A stretch of 57,204 nucleotides of DNA from Pseudomonadota bacterium. Its GTDB lineage: Bacteria > Pseudomonadota > Gammaproteobacteria > Steroidobacterales > JBCCMA01. A program made the translations under genes and the position numbers. Shown piece by piece: positions 16,274 through 22,531 of this stretch (its first letter is position 1; every line of letters starts with the position of its first letter). The stretch is taken from contig JBCCMA010000004.1 of assembly GCA_039026595.1 (NCBI GenBank), forward strand, positions 1 through 57,204. The letters are read 5' to 3'. The notes below the pieces were generated by a model. That model worked only from the letters and a program-made list of their open reading frames with translations, had not been told where the DNA came from and searched no databases.

Positions 16274-16999
16274 ATGCGACCCAGCGGCCGCCAGCCTGAT
16301 CAACTGCGCGAAGTGTCTTTCACGCGCCATTTCACCAAGCACGCCGAGGGATCGGTTCTCGCCTGTTTCGGGGATACCCGTGTCCTGTGTACCGCCAGCA
16401 TCGAGGAGCGCGTGCCCGGGTTTTTGCGCGGCAGGAACTCCGGCTGGATTACCGGTGAATACGGGATGTTGCCGCGGGCCACACACACCCGCGGGAATAG
16501 AGAAGCTGCGCGCGGTGGTCAATCCGGGCGAACACAGGAAATTCAACGGCTGATTGGCCGTTCGCTGCGCTCCGTGGCGGATCTCGAGGCACTGGGCCAA
16601 AGAACAGTCACACTGGATTGCGATGTCCTGCAAGCCGACGGCGGCACGCGCACAGCGGCGATCAGCGGCGCCTACGTGGCCCTGGTCGACGCCATCGAGT
16701 CACTTCGCCGCGAAGGCTGGGTCGAAAAGCCGGTCCTTCTGGGACAGGTTATCGCGGTCTCGGTCGGTATTTTCGACGGCAAGCCGGTGCTCGACCTTGA
16801 TTACGCGGAAGACTCCCAGGCCGAAACCGACATGAATGTGGTCATGAACGAGTCGGGCCAATACATCGAGATTCAAGGCACAGCCGAGGGCCACGCGTTC
16901 ACCCGTCCGGAACTCGACCAGCTGCTGGCACTGGCCGCGCTGGGCTGCGATCAGATTGGCGCCGCTCAGCGCGCCGCGCTCGAGAAGCAGGACGGTTGA
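16274..16999 (+). CDS. rph: Ribonuclease PH
   Basis: [35 protein letters not shown]. Confidence 0.97.
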
Positions 17000-17631
17000 G
17001 CGTGACAACGCCCACGCCCCCCGAGGTGGAACTGATCGTCGCGACGGGCAATCCCGGCAAACAGCGCGAGATCGGCCAGACCTTGCGCAGCCCGGGCATC
17101 GTTCTGACCACCCACCCCGACCTGAATATGGCGAGCGTCGAAGAGACCGGCGCCACGTTTGTCGAGAACGCGCTTCTCAAGGCGCGCTACGCCTCACAGA
17201 TCGCCAAACGCCCCGCGCTGGCAGACGACTCGGGCCTCGAAGTCGACGCTCTGGGCGGCGCGCCCGGCATTTATTCCGCACGCTATGCTGGGACCTCTGC
17301 CAGCGATGAAGCCAATGTGGACAAGCTTCTCAGCGCGTTGGCCAACGTCGCAGACGAGCGCCGAACGGCCCGGTTTCGCTGCGTGATCGTGGTGTTGCGC
17401 CACGCGCTGGACCCGGCGCCGATGATTTGTGAAGGCTGCTGGGAGGGTCGCATTGCATTTGAACGGCGTGGCACCGGCGGTTTTGGCTATGACCCCGTTT
17501 TTATCCCTGACGGTATGGCGCGCCATGCCTCCGAACTCTCGCCGGATGAGAAAAATGCGGTGAGCCACCGGGGTCAGGCGCTGGCCACACTGGCCAACGG
17601 GATTGGACCGTTCCTTGCGCGCCATCGCTGA
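16996..17631 (+). CDS. rdgB: dITP/XTP pyrophosphatase
   Basis: [29 protein letters not shown]. Confidence 0.96.
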
Positions 17632-18823
17632 TCGCCCCCTTGGGCTCTACCTCCATTTGCCGTGGTGCGTAAGCCGGTGTCCGTATTGCGATTTCAATAG
17701 CCACGAGTTTCCGGGCGAACTGCCCGAGGTCCCCTATACCACCGCTCTTTTGAACGACCTCGAACGCGAGTCGCGCATTGCCCGGCACGAGGGCTGGATT
17801 CGGCCCTTCACCAGCGCGTTCATCGGCGGCGGCACGCCCAGCTTGTTTTCTTCAGGATCGATCGGACAGATGCTCGACCAGGCCGCGCGGCTATTCGGTT
17901 TTACTGCCGACGCGGAAATCACGCTGGAGGCTAACCCGGGCTCGGTGGAGCGACATTCCTTTACGGGCCTGCGAGATACCGGGGTCAACCGAGTGTCGCT
18001 CGGGGCGCAGAGCTTTAACGATGCATCCTTGCGCGCGCTGGGCCGGGTCCACCGGGCGGAAGAAACAACAGACGCCGTTGAGGAAATTCGCCGAAGCGGC
18101 ATCGACAATCTCAACATTGACATTATGTTTGCGCTGCCCGGGCAGTCCGTCGCGGACGCACAGCGTGACGTCGAGGCCGCCCTCGCACTCGGCCCGCAAC
18201 ATCTCTCTTATTATCAGCTCACGCTGGAACCCAATACGGCGTTCTACCGGCATCCACCGGCCCTGCCGGATGAGGAACTGGCTTGGGAGATGCAGCACAA
18301 CGGAATCGAACGCCTCGCCAAGGCCGGGTTTGGTCAATATGAGGTGGCGGCACACGCGCCGCCGGGGTCCGAAGCCCGCCACAATCTGAACTACTGGACC
18401 TTTGGCGATTACGTCGGTCTCGGCGCCGGTGCCCACGGCAAAATCACCCTGTCTGGCGGGCAAGTGGTCCGCACGTCGCGGCCGCGGTCACCACAGGCTT
18501 ACATGAGGTCACGAGGGACCGATCAGCCCTGTGACCGGAGCGTGCAGGCTCTGACCGCACGCGATCTGGTCTTCGAGTACGCGCTCAACCATCTGCGACT
18601 TCGCCACCAGTACCTCAAGCCGGGTCACTTCGAGACCGCAACCGGACTTGACCGCTCGGCGCTCGCCGGGCCCATCGCGCGAGCATGCGACCGCGGGTTA
18701 CTGGCTCACCACGGCGAGTCGGGCTACCAGACCACAACCCTCGGATGGCGCTTTCTCAATGATCTGCAGGCCATTTTTCTGCCCGATGCACAGGATCGTG
18801 ACCAGCCGCAGCGGGCCGTCTGA
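17603..18823 (+). CDS. hemW: Radical SAM heme chaperone HemW
   Basis: YLHLPWCVSRCPYCDFNS, GGGTPS, HNLNYW motif. Confidence 0.93.
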   Translation: MDRSLRAIADRPLGLYLHLPWCVSRCPYCDFNSHEFPGELPEVPYTTALLNDLERESRIARHEGWIRPFTSAFIGGGTPSLFSSGSIGQMLDQAARLFGFTADAEITLEANPGSVERHSFTGLRDTGVNRVSLGAQSFNDASLRALGRVHRAEETTDAVEEIRRSGIDNLNIDIMFALPGQSVADAQRDVEAALALGPQHLSYYQLTLEPNTAFYRHPPALPDEELAWEMQHNGIERLAKAGFGQYEVAAHAPPGSEARHNLNYWTFGDYVGLGAGAHGKITLSGGQVVRTSRPRSPQAYMRSRGTDQPCDRSVQALTARDLVFEYALNHLRLRHQYLKPGHFETATGLDRSALAGPIARACDRGLLAHHGESGYQTTTLGWRFLNDLQAIFLPDAQDRDQPQRAV

Positions 18824-18843
18824 CGGCAGTCCGTGCTTTGCGG

Positions 18844-19058
18844 TTATGCACAAACCACCGAAGTTGGTCAGTAAAAGTGAAAGTAACAGAATGTTCCTTG
18901 TGTGACGTGATATAAGAACGATATAAATTACTGAATTATATATATTTATATGAAATTGTTGTTATTTTCGCCAATTTAACCAAAGTGCTTATTAACAACG
19001 GGGCGCGAGCGCTCTGTACACGGTCTTCCACAACGTTATCCACAGATTCTGGGGATAA
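18844..19058. promoter_or_regulatory. DnaA-box cluster with AT-rich tract (DARS-like element or oriC candidate)
   Basis: TTATGCACA 18844-18852; TCTTCCACA 19024-19032, TTATCCACA 19036-19044, inverted TGGGGATAA 19050-19058; only 8 G/C in the 58 bp 18911-18968. Confidence 0.75.
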
Positions 19059-19094
19059 CCCCACAGCGTTGTTGTGGCCGCTCGAGTGATTCGC

Positions 19095-19107
19095 TATATT
19101 GCGCGCC
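19095..19107 (+). promoter_or_regulatory. Putative rpmE -10 element with GC-rich discriminator
   Basis: TATATT followed by GCGCGCC, as in stringently controlled r-protein promoters. Confidence 0.45.
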
Positions 19108-19165
19108 CCTCCAGCCATCGGCGGAATCGTCCAGCAGGTGAAGCAGAGGGAGATGGAGAGTCCCG

Positions 19166-19369
19166 ATGAAAGCGCAAATCCACCCCGATTACGCCGAGAT
19201 TACGGTCACCTGCAGCTGCGGCGACACGTTCAAGACCAAGTCGACGATGGGCAAGGATCTTACGATCGAAGTCTGCTCGTCCTGCCACCCTTTCTACACA
19301 GGGAAGCAGAAAATCGTTGATAGCGGCGGTCGTGTAGACAAGTTCCGCAAGAAGTACGGCGGCAAATAG
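19166..19369 (+). CDS. rpmE: 50S ribosomal protein L31 (Zn-binding type A)
   Basis: [33 protein letters not shown]. Confidence 0.97.
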
Positions 19370-19414
19370 AGCGTCACGGGCGCCCTGGCCTCAGGTCAGG
19401 GTCCCTGCCGACGT

Positions 19415-20026
19415 TCAGTCCAGCTCCTCTTCCAGCTCGCTCAGCGCTTTCGCTGTCAGACGTTTCATCGGTTTCCCTGTGACCGGACTGAGCGGCGCCT
19501 GACGCTGTGCGTCGATCGGGAAGACGGTGACGTCCACCTCCGTCCCATCCACGTCGAATCGATAGGCCGGGTAGATTTCCGTACGCTCAGCCGTATAGCG
19601 GACCCGCGATTCGGCCACGATCATGTCGGGCGCTGACTCCAGCAGCGCCATAGCGACCATCTCAGGCGGCTCGCTAAAGAAATGAAGCTCGACGGCCGTT
19701 GTGGCCCCGAGCGCCCCGCTGACCACCGCGCCGACCGCACGCGGCGAAAACTGCGGCAGGGTCTGCATCACCGCTATCGCACAGTCGCGCATCCGCGCCA
19801 GTCTCTGGCGATGTTCGTCGCCACCAAAAAGCCGCGCTGCAGTTTGCAGGGCCGCCTCAATCTCGCGGTTGTTCGGCAGCGCACCTTTATCCACGACGCC
19901 CAACGTCGTCGCGGCCTTGGTTTTCGCAAGGTAGTAATCGTTGATGCCGTGGTGGGCCATCAGGCGCGCAGCCTCAGCTGCAACCCGCAGGCGCAGCGCC
20001 CGCGTTGGGTGGGATCGTTTTGCCAT
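19415..20026 (-). CDS. Conserved hypothetical protein, nucleotidyltransferase-like fold
   Basis: AAEAARLM...DYYLAK.KAA...LP.N.EIE..L, F.PR.VG.V..G, VELHFF; starts 4 nt after the mrcA stop. Confidence 0.7.
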   Translation of the reverse strand: MAKRSHPTRALRLRVAAEAARLMAHHGINDYYLAKTKAATTLGVVDKGALPNNREIEAALQTAARLFGGDEHRQRLARMRDCAIAVMQTLPQFSPRAVGAVVSGALGATTAVELHFFSEPPEMVAMALLESAPDMIVAESRVRYTAERTEIYPAYRFDVDGTEVDVTVFPIDAQRQAPLSPVTGKPMKRLTAKALSELEEELD

Positions 20027-20030
20027 GGCG

Positions 20031-22448
20031 TCAGAAAATATCGCCGGTCTGGAAGTCGTCTTCCTCGTCCTGACTGCCGAACTCGAGGTCCGAGGCCGCG
20101 CGGGTGGGTACATTGTCCTGACGGAACGTCTCAAAAATGGCGTTCTCGGCACCGGCGGCGGCCAGGAGACCGCTCTCTGGTGAAATGCGCACCGTGACCA
20201 GCCCATTGGGTTCGGGTTGCGCGCGTTCCTCCACGCCGGCCAGCGCCCTGCCCATAAAGTCGATCCAACCGGGCAGTGCGGTCGCGGCGCCCGCTTCGCC
20301 GCGGCCGAGCGAACGCTCCTGATTAAAGCCCACCCAGTTCACAGCCACGAGCGACTGGTTGAAGCCGGCAAACCATGCGTCGCGCTGATCATTTGTCGTG
20401 CCGGTTTTGCCCGCCAGATCGCTGCGCCCCAGCGTTCGGGCGCGCGCGCCGGTGCCACGCGTCACCACGTCCTGCATCATATCGGTCATCAGAAATACAT
20501 TTTGCGCCGACAGCACACGGGCCGCCGCACGGCTCGGCAAGAGCGGCGCCTCCCGCTCGCAGGTCTCTGCGGTAGCTGGGGCGGTGATTTCCTCCAGCGT
20601 CACGCACTCCCGGCAAGCGGTGACCGGCTCCGCGCTGAATACGGACTGGCCTTCAGCATCCTCGATACGGTCAATAAAGTAGGGAGTGACCCCGAATCCA
20701 CCGTTCACAAACACCGTATACGCCGTTGCCAATTCCAGTGGTGTGACGGCCGCGCTGCCGAGCGCGAGAGACAGGTCACGCGGCAGTTCGTCGGTGTTAA
20801 AGCCGAAACGCCCCAGATGGTTGATGGTGAAGGCGATACCCACCTCGTTCAGCAACCGGATGGAGACGAGATTACGCGAGCGGATCAGCGCCTCGCGCAT
20901 GCGCGTCGGCCCGCGGAACACGCCGCCGTAGTTCTTTGGCCGCCACGTGTCATCCAGCGCGTCGTCCGCAAAAACAATTGGGGCGTCGTTGATCACGGTG
21001 GCAGGCGTGCGTCCGCTTTCGAGTGCAGCGGAGTAAATGAACGGCTTGAATGACGAACCAGGCTGGCGTTTCGCCTGAACGACGCGGTTAAACTTGCTTT
21101 TGAAGAAGTCATACCCGCCCATGAGCGCCGACACAGCGCCGTCCGTCGGATCGAGGGCCACCATGGCCCCCTCGACCTCCGGTGTCTGTGCCAGTTCGAT
21201 CCCGTCGTCGCCGCTGATCAGATACACAAGATCCCCTGCCGACAGCACATCGCCCACGGACTCAATCTCAGGGCCGCGCGTGTCGTCACTAATGTATCGG
21301 CGGGCCCAGGCAACCTGCTCCAGACCCAGATCGATGAAGTCACCGTCCACAGTCGCCAGTTGCGCGCGATCGGCCTCAACCACAGTCACCTGTGCCGGAA
21401 TCAGGTCACCAACACGGGGCACATTGGCCAGTGCCCCTTCGGCATCCGGGGGCTCAAGGCCAGCCGTGTTGCCGACGGCCCCTCTGTAACCATGTCGACG
21501 ATCGTAGGCGTGGAGATTGGCTCGCAGCGCAGCTTGAGCGGCGAGTTGCAGGTCGGAGTCGATCGTTGTGATCACCCGGTACCCACGGTTTATGGCGTCA
21601 CGCCCAAGGCGCCGCTCGACATCGGCACGCACCATTTCGGCCACATACGGCGCCTTGACCGCGACGTTGGCCCCGTGCAACCGCGCGACCATGGTCTCGT
21701 CTCCGGCCGCGTCGTGCTCCTCGGGTGTGATAAAGCCCAGTTCAAGCATGCGCCGCAGCACGTAGCCCCGCCGGTCCGTGGCCCGCGACGCGCTGCGCAC
21801 CGGATTGTCGCGCGACGGGCTCTGAGGTAAGCCGGCCAGCGTGGCCGTTTCCGCGAGCGTCAGGTCATTCAGTGTTTTGCCGAAGTACACTTCGGCCGCG
21901 GCGGCGACGCCGTAGGCACGCTGTCCGAGAAAAATCTTGTTCAGATAGAGCGCCAGGATCTCTTCTTTGGTCGATTCGCGCTCCATCCGCAGCGAAAGAA
22001 AAATCTCCTGAAGCTTTCGCTTGTAGGTTTTGTCCGGAATCAGGAACAGATTGCGGGCCAGCTGCATGGTGATCGTGCTGCCGCCCTGCGAACGCTCGCC
22101 GCCACTGCTGACAAGCTTGATGACCGCGCGCAAAAGGCCCTGGTAATCCACGCCCGGGTGCTCGAAAAAGCGGTCATCTTCAGCGGCAATGAACGCCTGT
22201 ACGACCTGCTCCGGAAGTTCGTCATACCCCACCGGAATGCGGCGCTTGTCGCCGAACTCGGCGATCAGTCGACCGTCACGCGTAAAAATGCGTAAGGGCA
22301 CCTGAAGTTCGACCTCGCTGAAATCGGCCGACTCGGGAAGCGTGGGCGCAAGATAGGTGTACGCCGCCAGCGCGGAAAGAACGGCAATGGACGTACCGGC
22401 CGCCGCCAGAGCGATCAGAAGCCCGACAAATTTAACTGCAAATCTCAT
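20031..22448 (-). CDS. mrcA: Penicillin-binding protein 1A
   Basis: AAEDDRFFEH, GGSTITMQL, QPGSSFKP (SxxK), SRN, GKTGT. Confidence 0.96.
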   Translation of the reverse strand: MRFAVKFVGLLIALAAAGTSIAVLSALAAYTYLAPTLPESADFSEVELQVPLRIFTRDGRLIAEFGDKRRIPVGYDELPEQVVQAFIAAEDDRFFEHPGVDYQGLLRAVIKLVSSGGERSQGGSTITMQLARNLFLIPDKTYKRKLQEIFLSLRMERESTKEEILALYLNKIFLGQRAYGVAAAAEVYFGKTLNDLTLAETATLAGLPQSPSRDNPVRSASRATDRRGYVLRRMLELGFITPEEHDAAGDETMVARLHGANVAVKAPYVAEMVRADVERRLGRDAINRGYRVITTIDSDLQLAAQAALRANLHAYDRRHGYRGAVGNTAGLEPPDAEGALANVPRVGDLIPAQVTVVEADRAQLATVDGDFIDLGLEQVAWARRYISDDTRGPEIESVGDVLSAGDLVYLISGDDGIELAQTPEVEGAMVALDPTDGAVSALMGGYDFFKSKFNRVVQAKRQPGSSFKPFIYSAALESGRTPATVINDAPIVFADDALDDTWRPKNYGGVFRGPTRMREALIRSRNLVSIRLLNEVGIAFTINHLGRFGFNTDELPRDLSLALGSAAVTPLELATAYTVFVNGGFGVTPYFIDRIEDAEGQSVFSAEPVTACRECVTLEEITAPATAETCEREAPLLPSRAAARVLSAQNVFLMTDMMQDVVTRGTGARARTLGRSDLAGKTGTTNDQRDAWFAGFNQSLVAVNWVGFNQERSLGRGEAGAATALPGWIDFMGRALAGVEERAQPEPNGLVTVRISPESGLLAAAGAENAIFETFRQDNVPTRAASDLEFGSQDEEDDFQTGDIF

Positions 22449-22531
22449 TGGGTGTGCTGGGATGGCCTGCGTAGTGGCTGTGATCGCGGCCCGTGGTCGG
22501 CCGCGCCTCAAATTCTACATGACTCCGGGAT

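Follow-up and report, generated by a model that had tools for sequence, protein, structure and literature searches.

DnaA-reactivating sequences (DARS) are a central part of the model by which replication is timed to once per cycle in Escherichia coli: they promote the dissociation of ADP from ADP-DnaA and regenerate ATP-DnaA. In this work, we analyzed a 57,204-nucleotide stretch of DNA from a gammaproteobacterium of the order Steroidobacterales (contig JBCCMA010000004.1 of the assembly GCA_039026595.1, termed hereafter the window) and we focused on a cluster of DnaA boxes located between the genes hemW and rpmE. Comparison with the E. coli elements makes it rather probable that this cluster forms the core of a non-coding module of the DARS type, which would regulate DnaA and whose make-up would be closest to that of DARS2. 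The geometry of the boxes, a match to E. coli, a conserved and fixed spacing, a location away from the origin of replication oriC and the presence of the genes for the trans-acting factors support this proposal directly, while we infer protein binding, DNA looping and ADP release at the module.

The hallmark of DARS, as given in the extracts of PMC6868365, is a pair of boxes I and II facing opposite directions with a 5-bp space, boxes II and III having the same direction; a three-box definition is also found in the extracts of PMC11724364. Homology to DARS has been shown for seven species close to E. coli, including Vibrio cholerae and Shewanella, according to excerpts of PMC8682772, and DARS-like sequences are mentioned in V. 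cholerae and E. coli-like species in those of PMC6090056 and PMC5010248.

The window is an entire contig (C4) of a 3.45-Mb assembly made of 227 contigs, with 61.6% G+C. The two genes bordering the cluster, which had been named in an earlier sequence-only reading of this DNA, both score above the NCBIfam cut-offs: hemW, coding for a radical-SAM haem chaperone, is found upstream at 17603..18823 on the plus strand (TIGR00539, 322.7 bits for a cut-off of 205.4), and rpmE, coding for the ribosomal protein L31, downstream at 19166..19369 on the same strand (TIGR00105, 121.2 bits for a cut-off of 38.35). The spacer separating them is 342 bp long and non-coding. Its core is a trio of boxes, TCTTCCACA-3-TTATCCACA-5-TGGGGATAA, spanning 19024-19058. 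Box III, TCTTCCACA (19024..19032, plus strand), is followed in the same direction and after the 3-bp spacer acg by box II, TTATCCACA (19036..19044, plus strand), which is a full consensus; then, across the 5-bp spacer gattc, box II stands head-to-head with box I (19050..19058, minus strand), which reads TGGGGATAA on the plus strand, that is TTATCCCCA inverted, with one mismatch. The sequence-only reading had described exactly this arrangement of three boxes with spacers of 3 and 5 bp and an inverted third box, as well as a fourth one, which we also found as a distal box TTATGCACA at 18844..18852 (plus strand), 192 bp upstream of box II.

Candidate sites for other proteins were looked for around the core, positions being counted from the start of box II taken as 0, with box III upstream. 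The AT-rich tract reported earlier, with 8 G/C in 58 bp, is indeed present at 18910..18967. It contains an IHF-like site, TAAATTACTGAAT (18924..18936, minus strand), which matches the consensus WATCAANNNNTTR on the minus strand with two mismatches, 112 bp upstream of box II. It also overlaps a Fis-like site, GTTGTTATTTTCGCC (18958..18972), at -78, where G1, T11, C15 and the AT-rich centre are kept and three of the six consensus positions fail. A conserved motif, GCCAATTTAACCAAAG (18970..18985), lies between the Fis-like site and the core, and its MAFFT consensus in relatives is ttTTcgCCAAttT.Ac. The two Fis half-sites previously proposed, GGTCAG (18866-71) and ATTTAACC (minus-strand GGTTAAAT, 18974-81), can be read in the sequence, but neither falls on the conserved Fis-type site at 18958-18972. 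GGTCAG was rejected because it aligns with no conserved block, and GGTTAAAT because it belongs to the conserved motif CCAATTTAAC, off the position of the Fis consensus. As had been remarked, there is no GATC cluster, the 342-bp spacer containing no GATC vs 420 in the whole window (~7.3 per kb). An RNA element or an L31 leader in the spacer was also rejected, since Rfam gave no match at E <= 1 within 18700-19450.

The trio is hardly expected by chance. With up to three mismatches allowed, its pattern was matched once in the window and never in 100 shuffles. Only two perfect TTATNCACA boxes exist in the 57-kb window and both are in the hemW-rpmE spacer; shuffled sequences contained 0.42 on average, and two or more in 6 shuffles out of 100. 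At the level of the genome, 424 boxes with at most one mismatch were counted, and clusters of at least three within 300 bp were found at two places only, namely the hemW-rpmE spacer and the spacer between dnaA and dnaN. Furthermore, when the layout 9-3-9-5-9 was scored at the 1026 genome sites displaying a good middle box, the window element had 3 mismatches and the next best site 7, the trio layout being single-copy in the 3.45-Mb genome.

We then compared the element with those of E. coli, using as a query a 46-base stretch of the trio of a relative. In all but two of the 5426 E. coli genomes (5424), this query matched a single place, with ~87% identity over 31 bases. In the E. coli record opened, this place is the bioD-uvrB spacer (101 bp), which we take to be the published location of DARS1. 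The core reads there TAATACACA-tgg-TTATCCACA-ggaat-AGTGGATAA. The DARS2 core was located by means of the deletion primers quoted in PMC4585315. It is found in the rppH-mutH spacer of MG1655 and reads, on the reverse strand, TTCTTCACA-act-CTATCCACA-gaaaa-GGTGAATAA. Relative to the 9-3-9-5-9 layout, DARS1 has 2 mismatches and DARS2 has 3, like the window, vs 6 for the best site in the glyY-queG spacer, which we assume to be the datA region of E. coli. The order, orientation and spacers of the boxes thus match both E. coli DARS records, as the sequence-only reading had anticipated from the 3- and 5-bp spacers.

DARS1 is the best match of the window element in terms of sequence: the spacers are the same and box II is a full consensus, a feature also stated for DARS1 in the extracts of PMC6868365. 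However, the published descriptions of DARS1 consulted here mention neither an IHF or Fis site nor a distal box; DARS1 needs no protein activator, and its gene context differs. We also observed beside E. coli DARS1 (L035:1628-1680) an inverted pair, ttggttaaattgc ... gcaatttaaccaaa, one arm of which nearly matches the window motif gccaatttaaccaaag (18970-18985). This pair and the window motif differ in their distance from the core and in the side of it on which they stand; the likeness may be due to chance or to a shared binding site.

The accessory sites rather bring the element close to DARS2, whose activation requires Fis as well as IHF, the latter bound between the core and the distal sites. 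Both have in common the core III-3-II-5-inverted I. In E. coli DARS2, we found a match to the IHF consensus at -99 and a full-consensus box V, in inverted orientation, at -197; the IHF match overlaps the PciI site that is placed beside IBS1-2 in the extracts of PMC11724364. In both elements, a match to the IHF consensus, imperfect in the window, stands about 100 bp from box II on the side of box III, reading away from the core (-99 vs -112), and a strong distal box follows at ~195 bp (-197 in E. coli vs -192 in the window), the IHF-like site of the window being also roughly midway. A Fis-type site, a candidate one in the window, lies within the module in both cases, and both are non-coding and outside oriC. 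On the other hand, box II is a full consensus in the window and CTATCCACA in DARS2.

One could also wonder whether the element behaves like datA, that is as an IHF-dependent box cluster promoting the hydrolysis of DnaA-bound ATP and inactivating DnaA, an effect on DnaA opposite to that of DARS. We consider this very unlikely. It is true that the window combines DnaA boxes with an IHF-type site in a non-coding region outside oriC, that a high-affinity distal box would stand on the far side of the bend, and that datA is likewise described as DnaA boxes with an IHF site in a figure legend of PMC11724364. But in the published descriptions consulted, boxes placed head-to-head across 5 bp are a trait given for DARS and not for datA. 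The E. coli sequence itself argues in the same direction. The arrangement of datA involves boxes 2, 3 and 7 together with an IHF site. Neither a head-to-head 5-bp pair nor a 9-3-9-5-9 trio occurs in the glyY-queG spacer, where the best score of 6 is to be compared with 2-3 for the other elements and where the strong boxes all have the same direction except for one terminal pair.

We examined 40 genomes of the same order, in 36 of which HemW could be matched, and fetched 30 loci including that of the window, HemW of the relatives being 47-57% identical to that of the window; one of these loci, L022, belongs to a genome (G019) that is unpublished. The order hemW then rpmE was observed in 26 of the 30 loci, the remaining four being too short to tell. 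The 5-bp head-to-head pair with box III is kept in 24 of 25 hemW-rpmE spacers of the relatives, so that the conservation of boxes and spacing that had been put forward as a check holds; the exception without a trio (L025) has a spacer of just 110 bp. The core nnnTCCACA of box III is also kept among relatives. Position counts were made over a set of 25 spacers that includes the window. A distal box with at most one mismatch was present at -190 to -203 in 22 of them; in three spacers its position would lie inside hemW, which was itself outside the search. The IHF consensus, with at most one mismatch and reading away from the core, was found at -110 to -113 in 16 of 25, and the Fis consensus at -78/-79 in 13 of 25 with at most one mismatch and in 5 of 25 without any. 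Spacing within the module varies mostly by ~3 bp, apart from two outliers at -202 and -203. Meanwhile, the distance from box I to the start of rpmE ranges from 81 to 317 bp and that from the stop codon of hemW to the distal box from 13 to 386 bp: the module has a rigid interior and a variable position between the two genes that flank it.

In the window, a promoter of rpmE is predicted at 19072..19109 (plus strand), with a -35 box TTGTGG at 19072-77, a 17-bp spacer, a -10 box TATATT at 19095-19100 and a GC-rich discriminator. The prediction was read from the sequence and from a block conserved before rpmE in relatives, cTTGtca...TAtacTg.CGCGcC, which is separate from the module and also has a GC-rich discriminator. 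Since the distance between the trio and rpmE varies from 81 to 317 bp, a fixed operator of the rpmE promoter is unlikely.

In order to evaluate how far the module extends beyond the order, the pattern CACANNNTTATNCACANNNNNTGTGNATAA was scanned over one genome per species, which gave at least 120 matching loci. The counts that follow are among the matches listed, full flanks having been fetched for 80 of the 120 and enough flank for counting sites being available for 116. The labels met include Woeseiaceae, Steroidobacteraceae, Lysobacterales, Pseudomonas, Legionella, Methylomonas, Thiomicrorhabdus and Halomonas, and also Nitrosomonas, Rhodocyclaceae, Massilia/Duganella and others. The named records belong almost entirely to the Gamma- or Betaproteobacteria, the two exceptions being Haliangium (L037) and Ca. 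Planktophila (L053). Our literature search found no placement of DARS in these wider lineages, the extracts obtained dealing with E. coli-like species only, and supplementary figures (PMC4245941 S3, S10) and Fujimitsu 2009 may show more. Both hemW and rpmE surround the match in 15 loci only, rpmE follows the trio in 25 of 120, and the neighbours are very diverse in the 65 other loci, where hemW is missing. Among these 65, a gene starting with the PriA N-terminus (priA) begins just beyond box I in 11 (L038, L041, L042, L059, L062, L065, L067, L077, L078, L086, L093), and a divergent xseA is on the other side in 7 (L046, L052, L058, L063, L073, L081, L097). We also noticed exbB or exbD on the other side in L097 and L081.

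Among the same matches, the accessory sites occur at preferred positions. A distal box with at most one mismatch was found at -176 to -205 in 55 of 116 loci. It has two modes over L036-L155, with 35 loci at -188 to -192 and 13 at -176 to -182, about one helical turn apart, and these two spacing classes fit a constraint of helical phase. The IHF consensus with at most one mismatch occurs in one orientation at -120 to -101 in 57 of 116, over a background of mostly 1-2 and at most 4-5 per 10-bp bin, and a perfect Fis consensus, GNNYANNNNNTRNNC, is placed at exactly -78 in 32 of 116. The AT content across the 116 loci reaches ~0.70 only at -110 to -70, and the loci whose distal box is near -190 share a conserved TGgt.A.aattT...Ca.ttt.a.a.

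Even sampling of genomes gave a similar picture. In a sample spread over the class, the trio with at most two mismatches was present in 328 of 401 genomes (four of them unpublished), for a single hit in total with the reversed control. In a sample of the phylum, 34 of 37 genomes of the same class and 47 of 113 genomes of other classes had the trio, those of other classes being concentrated in a few families, and the control gave no hit. Many genomes of the class sample contain two or more copies of the trio. In the class and phylum samples, a few genomes (e.g. G234, G475, G098, G298) match the trio pattern 8-11 times, in some cases with flanks that are nearly identical; evidently, the module can be multiplied in some lineages.

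The presence of DnaA boxes, an IHF-type site and a tract with only 8 G/C in 58 bp, as in the oriC of Gammaproteobacteria, together with a distance to dnaA below 100 kb in two relatives, could evoke an origin unlinked to dnaA in which the tract would serve as the unwinding element. The sequence-only reading had retained this possibility, which we find barely conceivable and reject on GC skew and on a separate box cluster near dnaA. The contigs of this genome fall into two groups of skew, of about +/-0.02-0.05, so that the skew is informative. On the window it amounts to -0.046 to the left and -0.035 to the right of the element, with no change of sign. The gene dnaA is broken into two parts, at the ends of contigs C62 and C3, and there the skew passes from -0.037 on C62 to positive values within ~20 kb on the reverse of C3: its sign thus changes across dnaA and not at the element. 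Moreover, the dnaA-dnaN spacer (L004:769-972; C3 61901-62104) has three DnaA boxes of its own, TGTGGAAAA, TTGTCCACA and TTATCCACA, and an AT-rich tract with aattgttgttgttgttggg; it is likely the oriC of this genome. We noted that the AT-rich tract of the window holds gaaattgttgttatttt, similar to this aattgttgttgttgttggg. We noted as well that the last ~120 bases of C62 (~19653-19806 region) are the reverse complement of the preceding sequence, a hairpin-like assembly artefact which truncates the DnaA frame.

Complete relatives lead to the same conclusion. In G041 (Woeseiaceae, contig of 2.94 Mb), dnaA is at 2,701,242 and the trio at 2,800,461, 99 kb apart; in G043 (chromosome of 3.57 Mb), they are at 291,042 and 343,844, 53 kb apart. 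The minimum of the cumulative skew is at dnaA in G041 and ~30 kb before dnaA in G043, and in neither does the sign of the skew differ between the two sides of the trio. The stretches considered from these genomes contain no box cluster other than the dnaA-dnaN spacer and the trio. Two or more copies of the trio in many genomes also speak against an origin. As for the AT-rich tract, the minimum G+C over 60 bp in the relatives is 0.18-0.43, less extreme than in the window; a conserved unwinding element was therefore rejected, and the extreme AT-richness to which the sequence-only reading had given weight turns out to be peculiar to this genome. Besides, the genes rph-rdgB-hemW-rpmE (window 16274-19369) are on the strand of negative skew, apparently the lagging one, and on the strand of positive skew, trio included, in G041 and G043. 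This switch points to a possible local inversion and shows that the module is retained whichever way it faces relative to the movement of the fork.

Altogether, the proposal of a DARS-type element outside the enterobacteria made in the sequence-only reading is supported by every in-silico check that accompanied it, and we consider how such a module could function. DnaA would bind to the full-consensus box II and would recruit further DnaA to box III, head-to-tail across 3 bp, and to the inverted box I, head-to-head across 5 bp. IHF bound ~100 bp from the core would bend the DNA, and this bend would fold back onto the core complex both the Fis-type site and, from 192 bp away, the distal DnaA box. 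ADP could then be let go by the strained head-to-head pair of DnaA, and the free DnaA would rebind ATP and become active for initiation again, balancing the hydrolysis of ATP driven by Hda. The genome encodes the proteins that such a scheme would involve, namely Fis (NF001659, 106.4 bits for a cut-off of 99), IHF alpha (TIGR00987, 165.7 bits for 120.25), IHF beta (TIGR00988, 150.8 bits for 119.95), Hda (TIGR03420, 226.2 bits for 194.8) and DnaA, whose gene is the one split over C62 and C3; HU is encoded too, at 111.6 bits, below the NCBIfam cut-off of 157. With Fis, IHF and Hda, the genome thus has both activators of DARS2 as well as the side of the DnaA cycle that drives hydrolysis.

Several points weigh against this reading. 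The Fis-type site of the window lies between the IHF site and the core, whereas the essential FBS2-3 of DARS2 are beyond the IHF site and overlap box V, according to the published descriptions. The distal box of the window is opposite in orientation to box V, and hemW-rpmE shows no synteny with bioD-uvrB or rppH-mutH. The IHF and Fis sites at the module are motif matches and only predicted; in the window itself, the IHF-like site carries its two mismatches and the Fis-like site fails at half of the six positions. The end of box I is 13 bp from the predicted -35 box of rpmE, so that an effect on transcription is possible. The main evidence against a mechanism identical to that of E. coli concerns DnaA itself. 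According to the extracts of PMC6868365, the release of ADP at E. coli DARS specifically requires Gln208. Position 208 is a Gln in E. coli (translated from dnaA of NC_000913.3) and a Gly in this genome. Gln208 is also absent from the DnaA of four of five other trio-bearing genomes compared, which have Gly in G041 (Woeseiaceae), Ala in G043, Ala in G044 (Pseudomonas) and Asn in G042, G045 being the one with Gln. The other interface residues listed in those extracts are largely conserved, apart from V211I in G045 and Q215R in G042; the DnaA fragment of the window genome ends before positions 239, 243 and 290.

Another hypothesis would be that the element is a platform for DnaA with a different job and no nucleotide exchange, either as a high-affinity titration sink or, with DnaA, IHF and Fis, in regulating how a neighbour is transcribed, rpmE here and priA or xseA elsewhere. 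The lack of Gln208 and the short distance between the trio and the -35 box of rpmE fit such a role, as does the recurrence, next to the trio, of priA, rpmE and xseA, which are genes of replication, repair or growth rate; the distances to dnaA of only 53 and 99 kb in the two complete relatives would agree with a titration site that is duplicated early. However, dnaA is 0.48, 1.45 and 2.05 Mb away from the trio in three other complete genomes. A control of rpmE is hard to reconcile with a distance of 81-317 bp to this gene while the interior of the module is fixed, and a control of neighbours in general with their diversity over the 65 loci among the matches listed. In addition, a head-to-head 5-bp pair with a third box and phased IHF and Fis sites is the signature of DARS, and neither a sink nor an operator would need such an elaborate arrangement. 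We therefore regard this explanation as unlikely, and keep the DARS-type module as the preferred reading.

Pfam gave no match for a 263-aa open reading frame downstream of rpmE (19415-20206, minus strand), which may not be a genuine gene; at its 5' end, it overlaps the 3' end of the gene coding for PBP1A (20031-22511, minus strand).

What is new here is the association, as predicted from the sequence, of an E. coli DARS core with DARS2-like accessory sites in a different order, in a host whose DnaA lacks Gln208. A more speculative hypothesis, which we hold only tentatively, is that an ancient module in four parts (distal box, IHF site, Fis site and trio) is near-universal in the class, taken as the GTDB Gammaproteobacteria as far as named records show, and that the hemW-rpmE element is one of its copies. 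DARS1 and DARS2 would then be derived and rearranged descendants of this module. As most carriers lack Gln208, ADP release would have to proceed via another interface, perhaps a contact with Fis, or else the ancestral role would not have been nucleotide exchange.

From a practical point of view, such sites should not be annotated as oriC. In the sample spread over the class, about four genomes in five have such a module, uncultured marine lineages like the source of the window being among them. Because the core geometry and the phased IHF- and Fis-type sites recur on this scale, our data suggest that a cycle of DnaA inactivation and reactivation, with Hda on one side and DARS on the other, is general to these bacteria. 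And since most carriers do without Gln208, they offer a natural test of the head-to-head mechanism that relies on this residue.

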